This document shows positions 1,392 to 11,602 of a stretch of 39,708 nt of DNA, piece by piece. The stretch's first letter is position 1. Every line of letters starts with the position of its first letter. The position numbers were made by a program, and so were the translations under genes. The stretch is from the IMG/VR virus record IMGVR_UViG_2909288124_000005, positions 1-39,708 of that record, one strand, 5' to 3'. This stretch comes from a virus. Its lineage: Duplodnaviria > Heunggongvirae > Uroviricota > Caudoviricetes. The notes beneath the pieces were generated by a model. The model saw nothing but the letters and a program-made list of their open reading frames with translations, had not been told where the DNA came from and searched no databases.

Positions 1392-1964
1392 TCATAATTC
1401 TGTGCTGGTGGCAGGAATTAATTTCTGCCAGATAGCGGAAACATATTTTGCCTGATGACGGGCATCGGCCAGGGCGTTGTGCCGTTCGCCATCGAAAGGC
1501 ATGTCCATTTTGGGGGCGAATCCGATGGAACGCTCAAGCGTAACGATCGTGCGTACATCGTGGTCATTCCAGTATGCCCACGGGCAGATTTGTCCTGCTC
1601 GCTCATAAGCTCCACGTAAAATTACGTTGTCGAAGGTGGCCCCGTTACCCCAGACTTTTAAATATTTTGTATTGTCTGCATGCTGATTAATGAAATGGCT
1701 CAGTTCAGAGAGTGCATCGCTGATCGACAAAGTATCATCAATACAGATTGCAGCTCGTGCTTCAGGGCTCTGTTTCAACCACCACAGGATGGTATCGCCG
1801 TCAGGTGTGGCCCCTTGCTCCATAGCACTTTCCAGGCTGACAACCGTATAGAATTCTTGTCCGATGTCTCCGGTTTCTGGGGTGAAGAACACCGCGCCAA
1901 TGGAAACGATTGGTGCATCCTTATTTTTCCCCATCGTCTCAAGGTCGATCATTAAGTTGTTCAT
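1392..1964 (-). CDS. DEDD-type 3'-5' exonuclease (DnaQ-like fold)
   Basis: N-terminal IDLETMG...IVSIGAV D-x-E motif and later H/D acidic motifs typical of DEDDh exonucleases. Confidence 0.5.
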   Translation of the reverse strand: MNNLMIDLETMGKNKDAPIVSIGAVFFTPETGDIGQEFYTVVSLESAMEQGATPDGDTILWWLKQSPEARAAICIDDTLSISDALSELSHFINQHADNTKYLKVWGNGATFDNVILRGAYERAGQICPWAYWNDHDVRTIVTLERSIGFAPKMDMPFDGERHNALADARHQAKYVSAIWQKLIPATSTEL

Positions 1965-2275
1965 TACTTCACCTCCTGCGTTTCTTTGCTGCTGTGAATT
2001 CGCCAGTTACCGACGCCTTCCCATTCAAACTGGCGGTTACTAATTCGCGTCCAGCCCCTGCCGAAAAGCAAATCCAGATACCAGTATTTTAAAGTTCTGA
2101 TAATTGCTCTTACAGTTGGTTTGCATCCAGAAGTCTTTGATGCGCAAATAAAGCACCGAGTTATGCTCATGGCCTCTACAAAAGGCCAGATAAACCAAAC
2201 CCAGATGCAAAGAGCCACGAACAACATGAGCGCAATGTTAGCCACTAAGCCAGACCAGTACAGATAATTGCTCAC
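1964..2275 (-). CDS. Hypothetical protein with N-terminal hydrophobic segment
   Basis: GTG start at 2275 preceded by AAAGGAGG; 4-nt overlap with the upstream gene stop. Confidence 0.45.
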   Translation of the reverse strand: MSNYLYWSGLVANIALMLFVALCIWVWFIWPFVEAMSITRCFICASKTSGCKPTVRAIIRTLKYWYLDLLFGRGWTRISNRQFEWEGVGNWRIHSSKETQEVK

Positions 2276-2511
2276 TGGTTGCCTCCTTTACGGATCTGCG
2301 CTGCGATGCGCGAAAAAAAAGACTCCCGCGTATGACTGTTAAGAGCTGGCGCGAACGCTGCGTTAAGAACGGCAGCATCACAGCCGTCATCGATATAGAG
2401 CGCAATTTTTTTCTCCAGGCGCGCTTTGGCTTCCTGCAACTGCATACCCCGGCACGCACGCGGGATATACTCAGCAATTTGAGCGATAGATTTTTCGTTC
2501 TGTTTAAACAT
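2272..2511 (-). CDS. Hypothetical phage protein
   Basis: ATG at 2511 with GAGGTG RBS; translationally coupled chain of small genes. Confidence 0.45.
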   Translation of the reverse strand: MFKQNEKSIAQIAEYIPRACRGMQLQEAKARLEKKIALYIDDGCDAAVLNAAFAPALNSHTRESFFSRIAAQIRKGGNQ

Positions 2512-2707
2512 GCTTCACCTCGATAGGCTTGATGCTGTCGATCAGCAGTCGGCGGCGCGTATTTTCTGCAAAGTGGCGGCGTCCGGTTTCTTTGTGGTAA
2601 AACTCGTTTTTTCCGACGACCCACATCCGCTTTGTCTGGTGCAGTTTTTTTACCTGCGGACCGTCTCGGGTGATAACAATTCCTGTATGAGTTTTTATCA
2701 CGCTCAT
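2504..2707 (-). CDS. Hypothetical phage protein (YfdT-position)
   Basis: ATG at 2707 with GGAG RBS; start overlaps upstream gene stop (ATGA). Confidence 0.4.
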   Translation of the reverse strand: MSVIKTHTGIVITRDGPQVKKLHQTKRMWVVGKNEFYHKETGRRHFAENTRRRLLIDSIKPIEVKHV

Positions 2708-3066
2708 TTCTTATTCTCCGGTGCTTTTGGCATTACTGCCCAGTGAGTGATATTGACGTTTTCAAGGTCCCCGACCTGAAATGTCCACTGCCATTCTCCG
2801 GTTTCTTTTTGTCCCCAGGTGTACCAGAGAGAACGCCAGCCAATTAGCCAGCCTTCTCCGTTAGCATCAAATAACAGAACACTTTCATTTGCTGGTGGCA
2901 GTTCAGCTGACACTGGTATTATTTTGTTTTCCAGTGCCGTACATTTAGCTTCAAGCGCATCGAATTTACGTACCAGGTACTCAGCATTTGTTTCGTTCAC
3001 TTTCAGATCTCGCGGTACACATTTCCCGCGAAGAAACCCTTCCATTTCGAAAACATTCATGCGCAT
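2704..3066 (-). CDS. DUF551-like phage protein (YfdS-like)
   Basis: 120 aa with Trp-rich C-terminus (GWLIGWRSLWYTWGQKETGEWQW); position and size match CPS-53 yfdS as I recall it. Confidence 0.45.
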   Translation of the reverse strand: MRMNVFEMEGFLRGKCVPRDLKVNETNAEYLVRKFDALEAKCTALENKIIPVSAELPPANESVLLFDANGEGWLIGWRSLWYTWGQKETGEWQWTFQVGDLENVNITHWAVMPKAPENKK

Positions 3067-3593
3067 TTGCGTAACTCCGATAACTCGTTAAAACGTTCCA
3101 TAAACATCCCGTAGGCATGGCCTGGTGACAGTGGAATAACTTTGAACATCTCTGTCGCCGGGATACCTTCCAGTACAGGCCAGAAAGAGCCATCATCAAG
3201 CCCGAGATCGCGGCGTTCGGTTGCCAGCATAATGAGATCGGCATATTTCACTGGCGTGCTCATAACAGGAGGTAACCCGTATTTCTCACGGATTACGGCG
3301 TCTATTTTTTCTTCCATCCGTTTATAGTCAGGAAGAAGGCGTTTCAGTGGTGCGGGGATGTCCTGGCAATATGCTTCTGTTGCATCATGCATTAACGCTT
3401 CAAAAGCAAATTCCTGCGGTACCAGCTGGCTGCAAAGCACCGCATGTTGGGCGACGCTGTAGAAGTGTGAAAGATGTCCTGCAAAGCGACAGATATTTGA
3501 AAGGGAAACCGCGACATCGTTAATAACGATGTCGTCTTTATTTATCCTGTCATAATAAAAATGCTTCCCGGAAAAAGTTTTAATAAATGACAT
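3057..3593 (-). CDS. yfdR: HD-domain phosphohydrolase / 5'-deoxynucleotidase (YfdR-like)
   Basis: H...HD metal-binding motifs (HFYSVAQHAV, LMHDATE); ATG at 3593 with GGAG RBS gives 178 aa, matching recalled YfdR length. Confidence 0.6.
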   Translation of the reverse strand: MSFIKTFSGKHFYYDRINKDDIVINDVAVSLSNICRFAGHLSHFYSVAQHAVLCSQLVPQEFAFEALMHDATEAYCQDIPAPLKRLLPDYKRMEEKIDAVIREKYGLPPVMSTPVKYADLIMLATERRDLGLDDGSFWPVLEGIPATEMFKVIPLSPGHAYGMFMERFNELSELRKCA

Positions 3594-3720
3594 TTTATTC
3601 TCCACGTATATGCGCTGCACCGCGCTGAATTCTGGTAAAAGGAAGCCCTCACTATCCGGCGATTATTGAGTAAATTATGTTTCCATAAATGCCCCCGCAG
3701 GGGCATTTGCAGTAATGAAA

Positions 3721-4545
3721 TCAGGCGGTGAAAGTACCAATAAAGGTTTCTACTTTGCTGTCTTTAAATTTCTCAACAAGCAGATCACGAAATTCGTTAG
3801 CCATTTCTTCCTGCACCGCTTCCAGCTGAATAATGCGCAGAACCAGTACAGGACGATCGCCAGTGATAATGCTGAGGCGTAATTTAAACGGACGTTCTTT
3901 AAGGCCTTCAAACGGAACGCATTTAAATTCAAATGCCACTGGCATAATGTCTTTGGTCTTCGCTTCGACAGACTCCATCAGGGAGCGTTTGCCGCTGAAG
4001 TCATTATCTTCAAAATCAGCGGTCTGGTTTGCTTCAATCGTGATTTTACGGACTGCCGCAGCCGCTTTTGTTGCCTGAATGGCGTCACCATTCGCATCAA
4101 AGCCCACAAGGTAGTCGGCCCAGTCTTCAATCCATTCTGCCAGTGACTTCTGGGAGTTACGCTCGCCGTTAACAGACAACAGAGCAGAGAACGGTGCTGT
4201 CTTTTTCAGTTTGAGAGTGGCGGTGTTATCTGCGTGACCTGGTTCATCAATAGTACCCAGGTTAAGCACACTAACGGCACGCATATTATCAGCATCGATA
4301 AAGCAGCGGGTGCCTTCATCTGCAAGATCTTTAGAATAACGGGTAAAATCATCGATGCTGGCAGTGGAAAGCGCGCCACGGAAACGGAAGCGATTTAAAT
4401 TAAATTTTTCCAGATCATGAATGCGGAAATTCTCAGGCAATGCCACAGCATCGGCACCAATCTTACTGATAATTTCATTAACACCCTGAGCAGAAATAAG
4501 GGCATGGATTTGATTAATTGCGGTTGCGTCTAAGTTCTGAGACAT
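3721..4545 (-). CDS. DUF2303-like phage protein (YfdQ-like)
   Basis: 274 aa, same length and position as CPS-53 yfdQ by recollection. Confidence 0.45.
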
Positions 4546-4610
4546 AATAAGTCCTCACTATATAAAGATATTCAGTGATGAGATAAATAATCGGTTAATT
4601 AAGAACGATA

Positions 4611-4973
4611 TTAATGACCTGCTGCGCGGAGTTTTCCGTCAGGTTCACCGGCAAGAGTCAGTAATTGTCCCTGGTCTTCCTGCAGAATAGTCAGGCGACC
4701 ACCGCGATTGACATACATCGGCGTTTCGGTGGTGTCTTCTTCGGAAATTTTCCCGCGGTTAGTCGGGCGAACATATGAGAGTTTGTGTTTGATTTTCACA
4801 CGGTTCTCATCAAATGGTTCGATTTCCAGGTTGAGTGAGACCTTACCTTTGGTTTTCGTGTTCATCACACCTGAAGCGACTTCACTGAGAACTGCGCCGA
4901 TTTTGGTTTCAAATACGCCGCCGTCCAGCTCCCCGATAAATGCCTGCACATCAGTACTGCGTTCGCTAGCCAT
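4611..4973 (-). CDS. Hypothetical phage protein (YfdP-position), 120 aa
   Basis: Start chosen at ATG 4973 preceded by GAGGAG RBS; the 100-codon in-frame upstream extension looks non-coding. Confidence 0.45.
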   Translation of the reverse strand: MASERSTDVQAFIGELDGGVFETKIGAVLSEVASGVMNTKTKGKVSLNLEIEPFDENRVKIKHKLSYVRPTNRGKISEEDTTETPMYVNRGGRLTILQEDQGQLLTLAGEPDGKLRAAGH

Positions 4974-5410
4974 TTTGCTGCTCCTCATCATATCGACCCT
5001 GCAAGGTCGGTTGGTTTCTCCACAAAACAGAGAAGAACACCTGCGGTGGCAGCCGCCCGGATGGATTGGGTTATGAGCCCGTCGTCCGGTGATGCTCTTC
5101 TCTGTTTTGTAAAAAGGACGGTACCAGCCGGAAGCAAGGGTACAAGCTGGTACCGCCAGGACTACACACAGCATAAAGTTGTGGTGCCGGGTGCCTCCCG
5201 GTGCCTGGCGAAGGTTGCACACCAGGCGGGTGGGTATCCACAGAAGGTCGACTGTCAGCCTCAACCTTAACCCGCGTGCGCTGAGCCGCATTCACCACAA
5301 CGCCAAGGATTCTCTTTGGTTGAAAATACTTAGCTGTTATGTGCCTGTCTTTTCACCACTTCAGGCTCGGTGGTATCCTTTTAAGCCCGTATACATAAAA
5401 GGAAAATCAA

Positions 5411-5656
5411 ATGACTTTTGATGAAAAAGAACTTGATAATGCAATTAATAAAATCATCGTAACGTCGCTCTTTTCCTGTCTCAGCGACACTCAGCAGAAA
5501 CAGTTCTACGAATCGGCTTTCAACATGATCGAGCGTTGTTGTTTCTGCGATGCCGACGAGTTACCTGAAAAAATCAGGAAACAGTTGGCTGATGCTCTTC
5601 GAGTGCGACTTTCTGACCAATTTTCTGAAATGTGCTCTCCGAATTTGGACAAATAG
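5411..5656 (+). CDS. Small hypothetical protein (81 aa)
   Basis: Protein-like composition, AAAGGAAAA upstream; its 3' end converges with and overlaps the 5574..5849 ORF. Confidence 0.3.
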   Translation: MTFDEKELDNAINKIIVTSLFSCLSDTQQKQFYESAFNMIERCCFCDADELPEKIRKQLADALRVRLSDQFSEMCSPNLDK

Positions 5657-6986: not shown

Positions 6987-7002
6987 AACGAAATTAAAAC
7001 CT

Positions 7003-7021
7003 TTGTACCGATAGGGTACAA
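7003..7021. promoter_or_regulatory. Putative OR operator palindrome
   Basis: TTGTACC-GATAG-GGTACAA perfect 7-bp inverted repeat 17 bp upstream of cI start. Confidence 0.4.
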
Positions 7022-7076
7022 GTATCTTGAAGGTTCATCTCAATCATGTAATATGTATATCGGAGGTACATATTGT

Positions 7077-7277
7077 ATGAAAGCGTATTGGGACTCTTTA
7101 ACCAAAGAACAGCAGGGCGAGTTGGCCGGAAAAGTTGGCTCAACACCAGGCTACTTACGGCTGGTTTTCAATGGTTATAAAAAAGCCAGTTTTGTGCTGG
7201 CTAAAAAACTTGAGCAATGCACGTCAGGTGCAATTACGAAATCTGACTTAAGACCGGATATCTATCCGAAAGATTAA
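7077..7277 (+). CDS. Cro-like HTH regulator (YdaS-like)
   Basis: ATG 7077 with GGAGG RBS at 7062-7066; 66 aa; divergent from cI across the operator region. Confidence 0.6.
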   Translation: MKAYWDSLTKEQQGELAGKVGSTPGYLRLVFNGYKKASFVLAKKLEQCTSGAITKSDLRPDIYPKD

Positions 7278-7308
7278 CAGAACACCTTCAATTTTTAACC
7301 ACAGAACG

Positions 7309-7872
7309 ATGAGGCTAACCGTGGGTAAGCATCACTGGAAAGTAGAAAAACAGCCTGAGTGGTACGTGAAAGCTGTCAGAAAAACTATCGCGGCGTTGCC
7401 GGGGGGTTACGCTGAAGCTGCTGAGTGGCTGGATGTAACAGAGAACGCTTTATTCAACCGCCTTCGTGCAGATGGCGATCAGATTTTCCCGCTGGGATGG
7501 GCAATGATTTTACAGCGCGCGGCTGGCACTCACTACATTGCGGATGCTGTCGCACAGTCTGCTGGTGGGGTGTTTGTATCGCTTCCTGAAATTGAGGAAG
7601 TAGAGAACGCCGATATAAACCAGCGCCTGCTGGAAGTCATCGAACAGATCGGGAGTTACTCAAAGCAGATTCGTTCGGCAATCGAAGATGGGGTAGTGGA
7701 GCCACACGAGCAGACAGCAATTAATGATGAGTTGTATCTGTCAATTTCGAAGCTCCAGGAGCATGCAGCACTGGTCTACAAAATCTTTTGCGCTCCAGAA
7801 AAGAGTGACGCCCGCGAGTGTGCAGCTCCGGGCGTCGTGGCGTTTTGTGTCTGTGGAGAAACTAACGCATGA
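7309..7872 (+). CDS. CII-like phage regulatory protein
   Basis: Position immediately after cro; family assignment from memory only. Confidence 0.3.
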   Translation: MRLTVGKHHWKVEKQPEWYVKAVRKTIAALPGGYAEAAEWLDVTENALFNRLRADGDQIFPLGWAMILQRAAGTHYIADAVAQSAGGVFVSLPEIEEVENADINQRLLEVIEQIGSYSKQIRSAIEDGVVEPHEQTAINDELYLSISKLQEHAALVYKIFCAPEKSDARECAAPGVVAFCVCGETNA

Positions 7873-8705
7873 ACAGTTTAACGGCAAATAACCGTTTGTC
7901 GCAACAGCTGGTGGTCAGCGTCGCTGAACACCTGTTGTTACGGCATGAATGCAGATTACCAAATCACCTGGCTGTAAGTAACCACAGAGAACTTTACCTG
8001 ACTGTGGGGGGCGAGTTGTGCAGGAACTTAACCGCTGGTTTCGTGACGGAAGAGGGCTTTATGTCCATGTTATTCGTTGGGAGCCAGAAACACAGCGCGT
8101 TATCTATCTTCGCAAAGACTACCCGCATGAGTGCTTTAGTCCTTTGTGGAAATTCAGGCGTGATTTTGTTGAGTGTGAAGGACCACCAGCACATTGATTC
8201 TGCCATTCCGGGACGTTACACTGTTCAGGCACCTTATAAAGCGGGTGTCGGGATTGGCGTCCTGGAATTGCATACGGCGACAATTGGCGCGTTAGCGTCT
8301 TTTTTGTTGCTACAACTCAGCTATACCCAAATTATGGTGGGCTGGGTGGGGGCACCGAAAGGTGCGCCGGTTTCCGTATGCGCCGGTTACGCCAACCCTG
8401 CTCAGTTCACCACCAGCGAAATTGGCGTTTCCGGTGGTGGAAGTTATCCATTGCATACGGAGGCTGCCATCATGGCTACTGTCCCAGCCCTCACTCGTCT
8501 GAATGATGAAGACTTACATAAACTCAGTTATGTAACAACTGCACTACGTGCTCTGCGCAAGGTAACTCTTTCGGATCCGCAGGCGCATCAAGTTCTGGTA
8601 GAAACCCTTCTTAACTTGCAGGCTGAACGTATTCGTCTGGCGGATAAGACTAATTTTCATATTCACCGTCTCCTGAATATCAGCGGAGGGCATCGTCATG
8701 CTTAA
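7869..8705 (+). CDS. Hypothetical protein (278 aa)
   Basis: Long open frame, start overlaps upstream stop (ATGA) and end overlaps next start; no domain recognised. Confidence 0.4.
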   Translation: MNSLTANNRLSQQLVVSVAEHLLLRHECRLPNHLAVSNHRELYLTVGGELCRNLTAGFVTEEGFMSMLFVGSQKHSALSIFAKTTRMSALVLCGNSGVILLSVKDHQHIDSAIPGRYTVQAPYKAGVGIGVLELHTATIGALASFLLLQLSYTQIMVGWVGAPKGAPVSVCAGYANPAQFTTSEIGVSGGGSYPLHTEAAIMATVPALTRLNDEDLHKLSYVTTALRALRKVTLSDPQAHQVLVETLLNLQAERIRLADKTNFHIHRLLNISGGHRHA

Positions 8706-8934
8706 TCCGTTGATCCTCAATATTTGCCGTTTTCTTCAGCGTAAAAAAACATCAATTCCTACAGTTGGGCAGTGGTACACCACACCTGCAGGGCATGTTC
8801 TACGTGTTAGCCTGGTTGACCGTGAATGCCAGAAGGTGATTTGTGAACCGCTTGGCCGTAATTACCGCGTCAGTATGCCGCTTATAGCCTTTCGCTCCGG
8901 AAAAAACATGAAGCATCTCGGAGGTGCAGCATGA
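8698..8934 (+). CDS. Hypothetical protein (78 aa)
   Basis: Translationally coupled on both sides. Confidence 0.35.
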   Translation: MLNPLILNICRFLQRKKTSIPTVGQWYTTPAGHVLRVSLVDRECQKVICEPLGRNYRVSMPLIAFRSGKNMKHLGGAA

Positions 8935-9749
8935 GTATGGAGCTGATGGTTAAAGCGATGAAAATTCGAGTGGGTAATCCATTGCGAAAACTGGTTCTGA
9001 TCAAGCTGGCTGATAATGCCAGCGATCAGGGTGAGTGCTGGCCCAGCTACCAGCATATTGCTGACCAGTGCGAGATTAGCAAACGTTCTGTGATGAATCA
9101 TATTGCGGCCCTTTGTGAGTCCGGGCTGGTAAAAAAAGTCACCCGGAAAGGTGAAAAAGGTAACTCAAGTAATATCTATCTCCTTCATCTGGATGGTGCA
9201 GGAGATTCACTAGGGGGTAGTGCAAATAATTCACTATCTGGTGCAGCAAATTCACTAGGTAGTGCAGGAGTTGCACCAGGGGGTAGTGCAGGAGATTCAC
9301 CCAGAACCAGTCACTCTTTTGAACCAGTCAAAGAACCAGTCAATGAACCAATAGCTGTTGGTGCATCAGTTGATGAGTCCGTGCGAGTTCGTTCAAACCG
9401 ACCGGAATACTCTCCGGAGTTTGAGCAGGCATGGCTGGCATATCCCAAACGTGCTGGTGGCAATTCAAAATCTGCAGCCTTCAAAGCCTGGAAAGCCCGT
9501 TTGAATGAGGGAGTAAACCCCGAAACCATGCTGGAAGGTGTGAAACGCTACGCGGGCTGGGTATCTGCGATGGGTAACAGCGGCACACAATTTGTGAAAC
9601 AGGCTGTCACGTTCTTTGGTCCGGATCGTCATTTCGAAGAATCCTGGGAAGTTCCTGCGGTATCTGCAGCCAGACGTGAGGACCCGTACTTCAAAGCCAG
9701 TTACGACAACGTGGACTACAGCCAGATCCCGGCAGGATTCAGGGGGTGA
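8931..9749 (+). CDS. Replication initiator-like protein (N-terminal winged HTH)
   Basis: N-terminal LRKLVLIKLADNASDQGECWPSYQHIADQCEISKRSVMNHIAAL resembles phage replication-protein HTH domains; internal iteron array. Confidence 0.6.
   Translation: MSMELMVKAMKIRVGNPLRKLVLIKLADNASDQGECWPSYQHIADQCEISKRSVMNHIAALCESGLVKKVTRKGEKGNSSNIYLLHLDGAGDSLGGSANNSLSGAANSLGSAGVAPGGSAGDSPRTSHSFEPVKEPVNEPIAVGASVDESVRVRSNRPEYSPEFEQAWLAYPKRAGGNSKSAAFKAWKARLNEGVNPETMLEGVKRYAGWVSAMGNSGTQFVKQAVTFFGPDRHFEESWEVPAVSAARREDPYFKASYDNVDYSQIPAGFRG
9195..9354. repeat. Iteron-like direct repeats inside replication gene (putative ori)
   Basis: GTGCAG at 9196, 9241, 9262, 9285 and AGTGCA at 9219 (TGCA spacing about 21-23 bp); GAACCAGTCA at 9304, 9321, 9333. 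Confidence 0.5.
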
Positions 9750-10240
9750 TCATGAGTCTTTTGAATGAAGTTCAGAAATTCATTGAAGCCCATCCGGGGT
9801 GTACTTCCGGAGACATTGCGGATGCTTTTGCAGGTTACTCACGGCAGCGCGTTCTGCAGTCAGCAAGCAAGTTACGTCAGAGTGGGCGTGTGGCTCACCG
9901 TTGTGAAGGAGATACACGCAGACATTTCCCACGCCTGACTGAGAGAGCGCAGGAGCCGGAACCACAACCAGTTCGTGAAACCAAACCTGTGCGCAATTTC
10001 TATGTCGGCACTAACGATCCCCGGGTGATTTTGTGCCTGACCCGCCAGGCTGAAGAGCTGGAGTCCAGGGGGTTATACCGTCGTGCTGCAACGGTGTGGA
10101 TGGCGGCATTCCGAGAAAGCCACTCCCAGCCAGAACGAAACAATTTTCTGGCGCGTCGTGAGCAGTGCTTACGGAAAAGCAGCAAGCGAGCTGTATCGGG
10201 TGATGAGTGGTATCTGTCAGGGAATTACGTGGGGGCTTAA
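9746..10240 (+). CDS. Putative regulator with PerC-like C-terminal motif
   Basis: Motif EELESRGLYRRAATVWMAAF resembles PerC-family signature as I recall it; weak. Confidence 0.3.
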   Translation: MIMSLLNEVQKFIEAHPGCTSGDIADAFAGYSRQRVLQSASKLRQSGRVAHRCEGDTRRHFPRLTERAQEPEPQPVRETKPVRNFYVGTNDPRVILCLTRQAEELESRGLYRRAATVWMAAFRESHSQPERNNFLARREQCLRKSSKRAVSGDEWYLSGNYVGA

Positions 10241-10893
10241 TGAGTAATAAATATTGCCAGGAGCTGGTGGAACTGCGGAACAAACCAGCCCATGAACTGA
10301 AGGAAGTGGGTGATCAGTGGCGCACGCCGGACAACATTTTCTGGGGAATTAACACCCTGTTTGGCCCGTTTGTTCTGGATCTGTTCACTGACGGTGATAA
10401 CGCCAAATGTGCCGCGTATTACACTGCGGAAGACAACGCGCTGGCGCATGACTGGTCAGAACGTCTTGCGGAGCTTAAAGGGGCTGCCTTTGGTAATCCC
10501 CCATACAGCCGCGCCAGTCAGCATGAAGGGCAATACATCACCGGCATGCGTTACATCATGAAGCATGCCAGTGCCATGCGTGATAAGGGCGGACGCTATG
10601 TTTTCCTGATCAAAGCTGCCACCAGCGAAGTGTGGTGGCCGGAAGATGCAGATCATATTGCTTTTATTCGCGGGCGTATTGGTTTTGAACTGCCTGCCTG
10701 GTTTATCCCGAAGGACGAGAAGCAGGTGCCGACAGGCGCTTTCTTCGCTGGTGCTATTGCTGTTTTCGACAAGACCTGGAAGGGACCGGCAATCAGCTAC
10801 ATCGGGCGCGATGAACTTGAGGCATGTGGTGAGGCGTTTCTGGCGCAGGTTCGCCAGCAGGCAGAAAAACTGGTCAGGGAGATGGCGGCATGA
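10240..10893 (+). CDS. Phage N6-adenine DNA methyltransferase (Dam-type)
   Basis: NPPY catalytic motif (FGNPPYSR); ATG 10240 overlaps upstream stop (TAATG). Confidence 0.75.
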   Translation: MSNKYCQELVELRNKPAHELKEVGDQWRTPDNIFWGINTLFGPFVLDLFTDGDNAKCAAYYTAEDNALAHDWSERLAELKGAAFGNPPYSRASQHEGQYITGMRYIMKHASAMRDKGGRYVFLIKAATSEVWWPEDADHIAFIRGRIGFELPAWFIPKDEKQVPTGAFFAGAIAVFDKTWKGPAISYIGRDELEACGEAFLAQVRQQAEKLVREMAA

Positions 10894-11216
10894 CGACGTT
10901 AACTCAATGCCAGCAGCAGGTGCTGGATATGCTGATTTCTTATCAGAAAGAACGTGGCTTCCCGCCAACCAATCAGGAGGTGGCAACCATGCTGGGATAC
11001 CGTTCGGTGAATGCAGCGGTGGAGCATCTTCGCGCACTGGAGAAAAAAGGCGTCATCACGATAAAGCGTGGCGTGGCCCGGGGGATAACGCTTCATACCG
11101 CGGTGAAGGACGACGACAGCGAGGCGGTCGGGATTATCCGCGCACTGCTTGCCGGTGAGGAAAACGCAAGGCTGCGTGCAACCCACTGGTTACATGAGAG
11201 GGACCTGAAAGTATGA
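10890..11216 (+). CDS. LexA N-terminal DNA-binding-domain protein lacking peptidase domain
   Basis: QQQVLDMLISYQKERGFPPTNQEVATMLGYRSVNAAVEHLRALEKKGVI closely parallels the LexA N-terminal domain; only 108 aa. Confidence 0.6.
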   Translation: MTTLTQCQQQVLDMLISYQKERGFPPTNQEVATMLGYRSVNAAVEHLRALEKKGVITIKRGVARGITLHTAVKDDDSEAVGIIRALLAGEENARLRATHWLHERDLKV

Positions 11217-11602
11217 AGCTGATCCTGCCTTTTCCGCCCAGCGTGAACACGTACTGGCGACACCCCAACAAAGGGGCGTTTGCTGGTAAGAGCCTGATAA
11301 GCGCGGCGGGGCGAAAATTCCAGAGCGCGGCGTGCGCAGCAATAGTTGAGCAGTTACGTCGTCTGCCGAAACCAACGTCGGCACCTGCTTCAGTGGAGAT
11401 CGTGTTGTTTCCTCCGGATAACCGGATCCGCGATCTGGACAACTATAACAAGGCGCTGTTTGACGCCCTGACCCACGCGGGTGTGTGGGAAGACGACAGT
11501 CAGGTGAAAAGAATGCTGGTGGAGTGGGGATCGGTTATCCCGGAAGGGAAGGTCGAGATCACTATCAGTAAGTACGAGAAAACGGCGGGTGCAGCTGCCT
11601 GA
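11213..11602 (+). CDS. rusA: RusA Holliday-junction resolvase
   Basis: LPFPPSVNTYW and D-x-DN...DAL...GVWEDD motifs characteristic of RusA. Confidence 0.85.
   Translation: MKLILPFPPSVNTYWRHPNKGAFAGKSLISAAGRKFQSAACAAIVEQLRRLPKPTSAPASVEIVLFPPDNRIRDLDNYNKALFDALTHAGVWEDDSQVKRMLVEWGSVIPEGKVEITISKYEKTAGAAA

Follow-up and report, generated by a model that had tools for sequence, protein, structure and literature searches.

Genes of the locus and their conservation

We examined a stretch of 39,708 nucleotides (nt) from a virus of the Caudoviricetes (positions 1 to 39,708 of IMG/VR record IMGVR_UViG_2909288124_000005), referred to here as the window, and within it the interval between a gene for a CII-like regulator and the gene for a replication initiator. 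An original prediction made from the letters of the DNA had placed two coupled genes of unknown function in this interval, open reading frames (ORFs) of 278 and 78 amino acids (aa), and had pointed to an alternative 59-aa frame inside the larger one. Our analysis makes it likely that the locus is an RNA 'immunity' cassette of the type described for P4, for ImmI of P1/P7 and for Gifsy-1, situated in the early rightward operon of a prophage that resembles SfV and Ayreon. The protein-coding features of the locus and its flanks are as follows.

7309-7872, + strand: CII-like gene (ymfL), matching Pfam Phage_CP76 and NCBIfam phage_reg_YmfL
7869-8705, + strand: 278-aa ORF with an ATG start, the long 'Eta-like' reading frame
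8018-8197, + strand: 59-aa DUF4222 gene with a GTG start, in a frame different from that of the long ORF
8472-8705, + strand: nested 77-aa gene starting at ATG 8472, sharing the long frame and placed like P4 kil and P1 icd
8698-8934, + strand: 78-aa ORF with an ATG start and its own GGAGG, overlapping the 77-aa gene and the replication initiator gene
8931-9749, + strand: replication initiator gene, matching HTH_36/DnaD_N and phrog_270

The sequence ATGA at 7869-7872 contains both the stop codon of the CII-like gene and the start codon of the 278-aa ORF, the 278-aa and 78-aa ORFs overlap by 8 nt in ATGCTTAA at 8698-8705, and a second ATGA, at 8931-8934, links the 78-aa ORF with the replication initiator gene. 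The original prediction had the positions of all three ORFs and their overlapping stop and start codons right, and the family matches of the flanking genes agree with the neighbours that it named. Its statement that no family was recognisable does not stand: the 278-aa ORF matches Pfam Phage_ASH and phrog_3960, the 59-aa frame matches DUF4222, the 78-aa ORF matches phrog_1153 and two Rfam families lie inside the 278-aa ORF. It had named a different reading frame or a known family as what would speak against its view, and both were found, the first as the DUF4222 frame and the second as the Rfam and Pfam families.

The region has 99.3% nucleotide identity with phage Ayreon and 94.7% with Shigella phage SfV, in which the same genes are annotated as SJJBTUD_0041/0042 and orf37/orf38, respectively. 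The labels given to these pairs are 'immunity region', which both records apply to the 278-aa ORF, and 'hypothetical protein'; RefSeq uses 'ash family protein' and 'DUF4222 domain-containing protein'. All of these records contain only coding sequences (CDSs) and leave the RNAs, promoter and target sites that we describe below unmarked. Matches to the locus occur in 1471 of 5426 complete Escherichia coli genomes, and the version in the window is itself common, with 438 of the 5426 genomes having a place that covers at least 80% of the query.

Two regulatory RNAs inside the 278-aa ORF

The middle of the 278-aa ORF contains the following elements.

8194-8222, + strand: candidate internal promoter, TTGATT (8194-8199), 17 nt, then TACACT (8217-8222), about 7 nt before the 5' end of IsrK
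8229-8305, + strand: IsrK / P4 seqA-like RNA (Rfam RF01394, 58.9 bits against a gathering threshold of 50)
8330-8417, + strand: C4 / P4 CI-like antisense RNA (Rfam RF01695, 80.7 bits against a gathering threshold of 45, model positions 1-87)
8422-8463, + strand: C4 target ('operator') sites on the mRNA, b2 TTGGCGT at 8422-8428 and a2 TGCATACGGAGG at 8452-8463

IsrK is equivalent to seqA and C4 to CI, and the pair is present in lambdoid prophages (PMC3632133). The IsrK of the window has two 5' hairpins, the second of which carries site b1 in its loop (8254-8260); site a1 follows at 8270-8277, and the RNA ends in an intrinsic terminator (8286-8299 followed by TTTTTT). C4 consists of a 17-bp outer stem and two hairpins, with a hypervariable a' loop at 8371-8382 and site b' at 8389-8395, and its predicted fold, with a minimum free energy of -45 kcal/mol, is the Rfam fold. 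Target site a2 overlaps a Shine-Dalgarno sequence, GGAGG at 8459-8463, that lies 9 nt ahead of the in-frame ATG at 8472. In P1, C4 is cut from a longer transcript by RNase P, which gives a stable RNA of about 77 nt.

Columns 8198-8228, which take in most of the candidate promoter, are invariant in 21 close relatives, and the promoter hexamers keep the same position in a 64-sequence alignment (alignment A1, described below). The promoter of the homologous isrK has been demonstrated experimentally in Gifsy-1 (PMC4825925).

Phage_ASH (PF10554) is the sole Pfam match of the 278-aa ORF (62.2 bits against a cut-off of 26). It covers aa 117-210, that is nt 8217-8498, the translated IsrK-C4 stretch; phrog_3960, which the ORF also matches, is labelled 'transcriptional regulator'. 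The same 'Ash protein family' matches translated IsrK-C4 sequence in the window, in P4 eta (L126, about 8330-8700) and in phage mEp460 (L003, 3349-3639).

Covariation and pairing between loops and targets

A pattern search with the C4 core recovered about 120 IMG/VR loci with 89 unique variants and 34 C4 loop sequences, and base pairs were counted on alignment A1, which holds 64 distinct variants. The proposed pairs are standard in 97.4% of cases, compared with 84% after shuffling and about 40% when the partners are slid against each other. The three C4 helices (27 pairs) are paired in 100% of cases and 13 of these pairs have changed on both sides; the IsrK hairpins also covary. Site b' was fixed by the retrieval pattern, so b', b1 and b2 are invariant in this sample, and the b sites, although complementary, are uninformative for covariation.

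The hypervariable C4 loop covaries with both of its sites across dozens of specificity variants. Between the C4 loop a' and the downstream site a2, 91% of cells are paired and 8 of the 12 pairs have changed on both sides; between the IsrK site a1 (8270-8277) and a', 99.8% of cells are paired and all 8 pairs show changes in both partners, for a covariation score of 1.08 (0.21 when shuffled). Across the 34 loop types, the exact complement in the downstream site has a mean length of 8.4 nt for cognate loops and 4.9 nt for non-cognate loops, with corresponding values for the upstream site of 7.1 nt and 4.8 nt. In the window itself, the duplex of loop and target has a predicted energy of -21.6 kcal/mol, compared with -12.2 ± 2.7 kcal/mol for shuffled targets. 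The C4 loops of SfV and the window differ (TTTCCTTGATCA against TTTCCGTATGCG), and the two therefore probably have different specificities.

In some viral contigs, two or three isrK-C4 cassettes follow one another and differ in their C4 loops (L023 at 9640-11245, L050 at 3802-5625, and L075, L089, L043 and L120), so that one phage could carry several RNA immunity specificities.

Reading frames that evolve as protein

Variable columns were counted at codon positions 1/2/3 among the 21 close relatives, with the following results.

CII-like gene, own frame: 4/7/24, normal coding
8018-8197, read in the DUF4222 frame: 4/3/8, resembles coding sequence
8018-8197, read in the long frame: 3/8/4, unlike coding sequence
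IsrK, read in the long frame: 6/7/2, unlike coding sequence
C4, read in the long frame: 6/6/2, unlike coding sequence
Target region, read in the long frame: 7/6/1, unlike coding sequence
77-aa part (8472-8697), read in the long frame: 6/0/10, normal coding
78-aa ORF, read in its own frame: 9/5/15, normal coding

Third positions are thus the least variable in IsrK, C4 and the target region, the reverse of the coding pattern. Judged by these substitutions, evolution as protein is confined, within the 278-aa ORF, to the final 77 codons (8472-8705).

The 59-aa frame is, by contrast with the long frame across the same nucleotides, coding-like, and more diverged pairs of sequences show the pattern more strongly (8/6/27, 3/4/14 and 10/7/21). 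It matches Pfam PF13973 (DUF4222; 51.1 bits against a cut-off of 27, E = 9.5e-14) and phrog_1343 (E = 1e-36). Because the substitution pattern is joined by the Pfam match, we take the frame to be a genuine DUF4222 gene, separate from the long frame; the suggestion of an alternative protein-like frame here was well founded, and RefSeq annotates the gene too. An extension of the gene upstream of 8018 was ruled out by four stop codons in its frame between 7871 and 8017.

The 146 nt from the stop codon of the CII-like gene to the DUF4222 start (7872-8017) are unusually invariant, with 7 variable columns among the 21 relatives, compared with 13% variable columns in the CII-like gene, and show no codon periodicity. 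A structured RNA in 7869-8017 is unsupported (fold z-score of -1.3).

These patterns bear on whether the 278-aa ORF could be an ordinary folded protein, an 'Ash' protein or transcriptional regulator, with only incidental matches to RNA families. Such a protein would account for a long ORF that is coupled on both sides, is recorded as a CDS in SfV and Ayreon, avoids stop codons in its frame and matches Phage_ASH and phrog_3960. However, the least variable positions before codon 202 are third positions, the frame under selection across 8018-8197 is that of DUF4222, and the conserved Phage_ASH residues fall on RNA stems whose paired bases covary, while the hypervariable segments change freely, bound only by pairing and by the absence of stops. 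We therefore consider an ordinary protein very improbable. PF10554 itself seems to be a family defined largely by conserved RNA sequence.

The long frame is kept open

From the 5' end of IsrK to the start codon of the regulated gene, the long frame is free of stops in 61 of 62 unique variants, compared with 0 of 62 and 7 of 62 for the other two frames. Counted by frame, with the long frame in the middle, the hypervariable segments contain 13/0/22 stops in the a1 region, 17/0/24 in the spacer, 4/0/10 in the C4 loop and 42/1/12 in the a2 region. Of 71 variants, 69 have a long-frame start codon ahead of the internal promoter, with surrounding sequences of several unrelated kinds, and 54 of 62 have the regulated gene in that frame. 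This avoidance of stops indicates that translation through the frames appears to matter. Our own reading is that the 278-aa ORF is the counterpart of P4 Eta, a frame selected for the passage of ribosomes and not for its product.

The same counts can be set against the possibility that the long frame is an artefact of annotation, with translation confined to the DUF4222, 77-aa and 78-aa genes and a non-coding RNA locus whose frame is open by chance or through constraint on the RNA. The absence of amino-acid-level constraint upstream of 8472 would fit, as would the RefSeq annotation, which shortens the ORF and keeps DUF4222, the 5'-part stop in one relative (L087) and the fact that C4 loop-length variants outside the enterobacterial 33-nt type often lack a frame that is open across the RNA. 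What makes it unlikely, although less so than the folded protein, is that shuffling within segments predicts about 35 long-frame stops in the freely varying segments and 0 were observed, against 77 and 69 in the other frames, together with the recurrence of the upstream start codon in unrelated contexts. Translation has also been reported in related systems: a passage of PMC10111431 describes P4 eta as translated, with a regulatory effect, and work on Gifsy-1 demonstrated translation of orf45, whose AUG lies at the start of the C4-like RNA (PMC4825925).

The view of two genes of unknown function is partly supported. The observation itself is confirmed, the ORFs being translationally linked and the long frame avoiding stops; what falls away is the status of the 278-aa ORF as a conventional protein gene, as its middle is the IsrK/C4 locus.

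Cargo of the cassette

The 77-aa protein is predicted by AlphaFold to form a helical hairpin (helices 5-29 and 36-71), with a predicted local distance difference test score (pLDDT) of 82. It has no Pfam or NCBIfam match, its model has no match with E < 0.1 among viral structures (Foldseek), and a word-indexed search found close relatives only. An exhaustive search of 1.8 billion representatives yielded about 10 relatives, the rest being coiled-coil noise; two of them, with 46% identity, sit behind other C4 variants. Homology to Kil of P4 is not supported, as BLASTP similarity stops a few residues past the initial 'MAT', and searches of Pfam, PHROG and NCBIfam found no Icd-like or Ant/Rha match in 8472-8934.

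Phages mEp460 and cdtI have the same flanks and a different cassette, in which the regulated gene encodes a Rha-family antirepressor. Relative to mEp460, mosaic joints lie at 8252 (in IsrK) and 8767 (in the 78-aa gene), with 98-99% identity outside the joints on both sides and a diverged Rha cassette between them. The position of the second joint means that the first 23 residues of the 78-aa protein differ between cassettes.

An exchange of this kind raises the question of whether the window holds a decayed remnant of an isrK-C4-antirepressor module, as in mEp460 and cdtI, in which the RNAs and the 77-aa ORF no longer function. In favour of decay, a Rha-family antirepressor replaces the 77-aa gene in relatives with the same flanks, and the 77-aa protein is almost without relatives of its own. 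Yet the 77-aa gene is under purifying selection (6/0/10) and is found with at least 3 different C4 loop specificities as well as behind the diverged C4 variants mentioned above; the promoter, both RNAs and the targets are all intact and fit one another, and this version of the locus is common among E. coli genomes. A functionless remnant is accordingly most improbable, and we treat the 77-aa gene as the regulated gene of an intact cassette.

The 78-aa gene is, by its substitution pattern, a real gene, and it matches phrog_1153 (E = 2.6e-42). It is possibly related to DUF4222: alignment to that family by hhalign is weak (E = 7e-4, probability 26%), PHROG profiles give reciprocal weak matches toward DUF4222, and homologues of the protein reach 14 bits against Pfam DUF4222 (E = 0.03, below the cut-off), with no match for the protein of the window itself. 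DUF4222 seems to accompany replication genes in satellites and lambdoid phages. In a P4-like island of E. coli 2014C-3051 (L005), positions 1601-5152 contain an Icd-like gene, an 'ash' gene and a second Icd-like gene, then several small ORFs, and a DUF4222 gene lies immediately before a RepA-family helicase gene.

The gene for the replication initiator contains iteron-like tandem repeats at 9196-9300 (about 4.7 copies of a 21-24-nt unit) and a second set at 9321-9350 (2.5 copies of a 12-nt unit), which probably represent the replication origin, in a position like that in lambda O. After it comes a PerC-family ORF (9746-10240, E = 1e-9), which overlaps the start of an ORF at 10207-10893 that is the counterpart of the phage N-6-adenine methyltransferase of the relatives.

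Proposed mechanism

If the cassette works like those of P1, P4 and Gifsy-1, its internal promoter would produce, in a lysogen, both short IsrK and a read-through RNA from which C4 would be processed. C4 would then pair with a2 and b2 and block translation of the 77-aa gene, and the untranslated RNA would be terminated, leaving the coupled 78-aa and replication initiator genes silent with respect to the internal promoter. The decoy sites a1 and b1 of IsrK may relieve the block, either by titrating C4 or by refolding the mRNA. During lytic growth, transcripts from the upstream early promoter would be translated in the long frame, whose start overlaps the CII-like stop codon, and ribosomes crossing the terminator, C4 and the targets would render these transcripts insensitive to C4, as is reported for P4 eta. 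Such transit of ribosomes would explain why the frame is free of stops despite unconserved amino acids upstream of 8472. As the 77-aa, 78-aa and initiator genes are chained by overlaps, control by C4 could reach the replication initiator, as control by CI does for P4 alpha. Cytosine exceeds guanine in the stretch at 8440-8760, a composition that hints at Rho dependence.

Several points weigh against this account of the cassette. The candidate promoter matches the consensus at only 8 of 12 positions, and a simple promoter scan of 7000-9800 called no promoter, including the candidate at 8194-8222, so the promoter call rests on reading by hand and on conservation. The energy of the b'-b2 duplex is no better than that of shuffled sequences, and the cassette does not have an antirepressor as its cargo. 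Upstream of the promoter, the long frame (7869-8160) is interrupted by a stop in the close relative L087 and overlaps the DUF4222 gene, and the RefSeq 'ash' protein starts at GTG 8160; the point of ribosome entry into the long frame, at 7869, GTG 8160 or ATG 8334, is consequently uncertain. In Gifsy-1, IsrK is an activator and the C4-like RNA has no clear role as a repressor (PMC4825925), so the direction of control may differ between systems.

More tentatively, and rating its chances as slightly below even, we propose that the long 'Ash/Eta' frame is a translated 'shield' that blinds early transcripts to the phage's own antisense RNA, that Phage_ASH is largely two translated RNA genes and that the SfV-like cassette gates, in place of an antirepressor, a new 77-aa effector with a helical-hairpin fold together with the replication initiator. 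If true, this would be a lambdoid phage with a P4-style, RNA-controlled replication switch.

The identification of the cassette corrects the reading of a very common prophage locus that has been annotated only as a hypothetical or 'ash' protein. Two regulatory RNAs, a promoter and operator sites would determine an immunity specificity in which phages that are otherwise nearly identical differ. Comparison of variants of the locus also shows cleanly that a frame can stay open with no constraint on its amino acids, which fits the model for P4 eta and is a warning for protein-family databases.

Comparison with known systems

The locus resembles the isrK-orf45-anrP-isrJ region of Gifsy-1 in Salmonella, in which IsrK has its own promoter and a leaky terminator and is followed by a C4-like RNA (STnc1160). 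In that system the isrK promoter drives the downstream genes, read-through and translational coupling are described, and IsrK activates translation in trans (PMC4825925). In both loci the C4-like RNA carries an AUG at its 5' end (the orf45 start in Gifsy-1, ATG 8334 in the window) and there is coupling to the next gene. Unlike orf45, which ends after 45 codons, the frame from ATG 8334 continues into the 77-aa gene. The window has no match to the AnrP antirepressor or to isrJ (for isrJ, no Rfam match in this region), and its locus is in the early right operon instead of beside a Q-like antiterminator.

With the c4-icd-ant region of P1/P7 ImmI, the locus shares a C4-family RNA that comes from the very transcript it targets, a pair of short complementary sites, one of which lies over the ribosome-binding site of a small first gene, and translational coupling of that gene to the following genes; in both, specificity resides in hypervariable loops. 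The window differs in having no Icd homologue and no match to the Ant antirepressor, the next genes being the 78-aa gene and the replication initiator gene.

The immunity region of P4 comprises the nested genes eta and kil, the promoter PLE, seqA, the CI RNA and seqC, upstream of alpha. Its long ORF (8812-8168, - strand) contains isrK (8692-8615) and C4 (8507-8420), ends in the 65-aa kil ('MATTLTPS...') and, as Eta, matches Phage_ASH with 82 bits. P4 and the window have seqA/isrK and CI/C4 in the same order and on the same strand, in a long ORF that begins where the upstream gene ends. In both, a short nested gene beginning 'MAT...' comes right after the target site, with an identical junction, 'EAAIMAT', and replication genes follow downstream (alpha in P4); P4-like elements also have a DUF4222 gene before the replication gene. 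As summarised in a passage of PMC10111431 on the work of Forti et al. 1999, P4 transcription from the promoter within eta is terminated by way of interactions between CI and seqA, and Kil is translated only on read-through. The differences are that the window comes not from a satellite but from a lambdoid phage of the SfV type, which has a LexA-like CI repressor as well as a CII-like gene, that its 77-aa helical hairpin is unlike Kil past the first residues and that it has an extra DUF4222 gene overlapping the 5' part of the long frame.

The practical consequence of the finding is modest, as this type of system has already been described in P4, P1 and Gifsy-1. Overall, the locus is an ordinary member of the known IsrK/C4 system with an unusual cargo, a 77-aa orphan followed by the replication initiator in place of an antirepressor.

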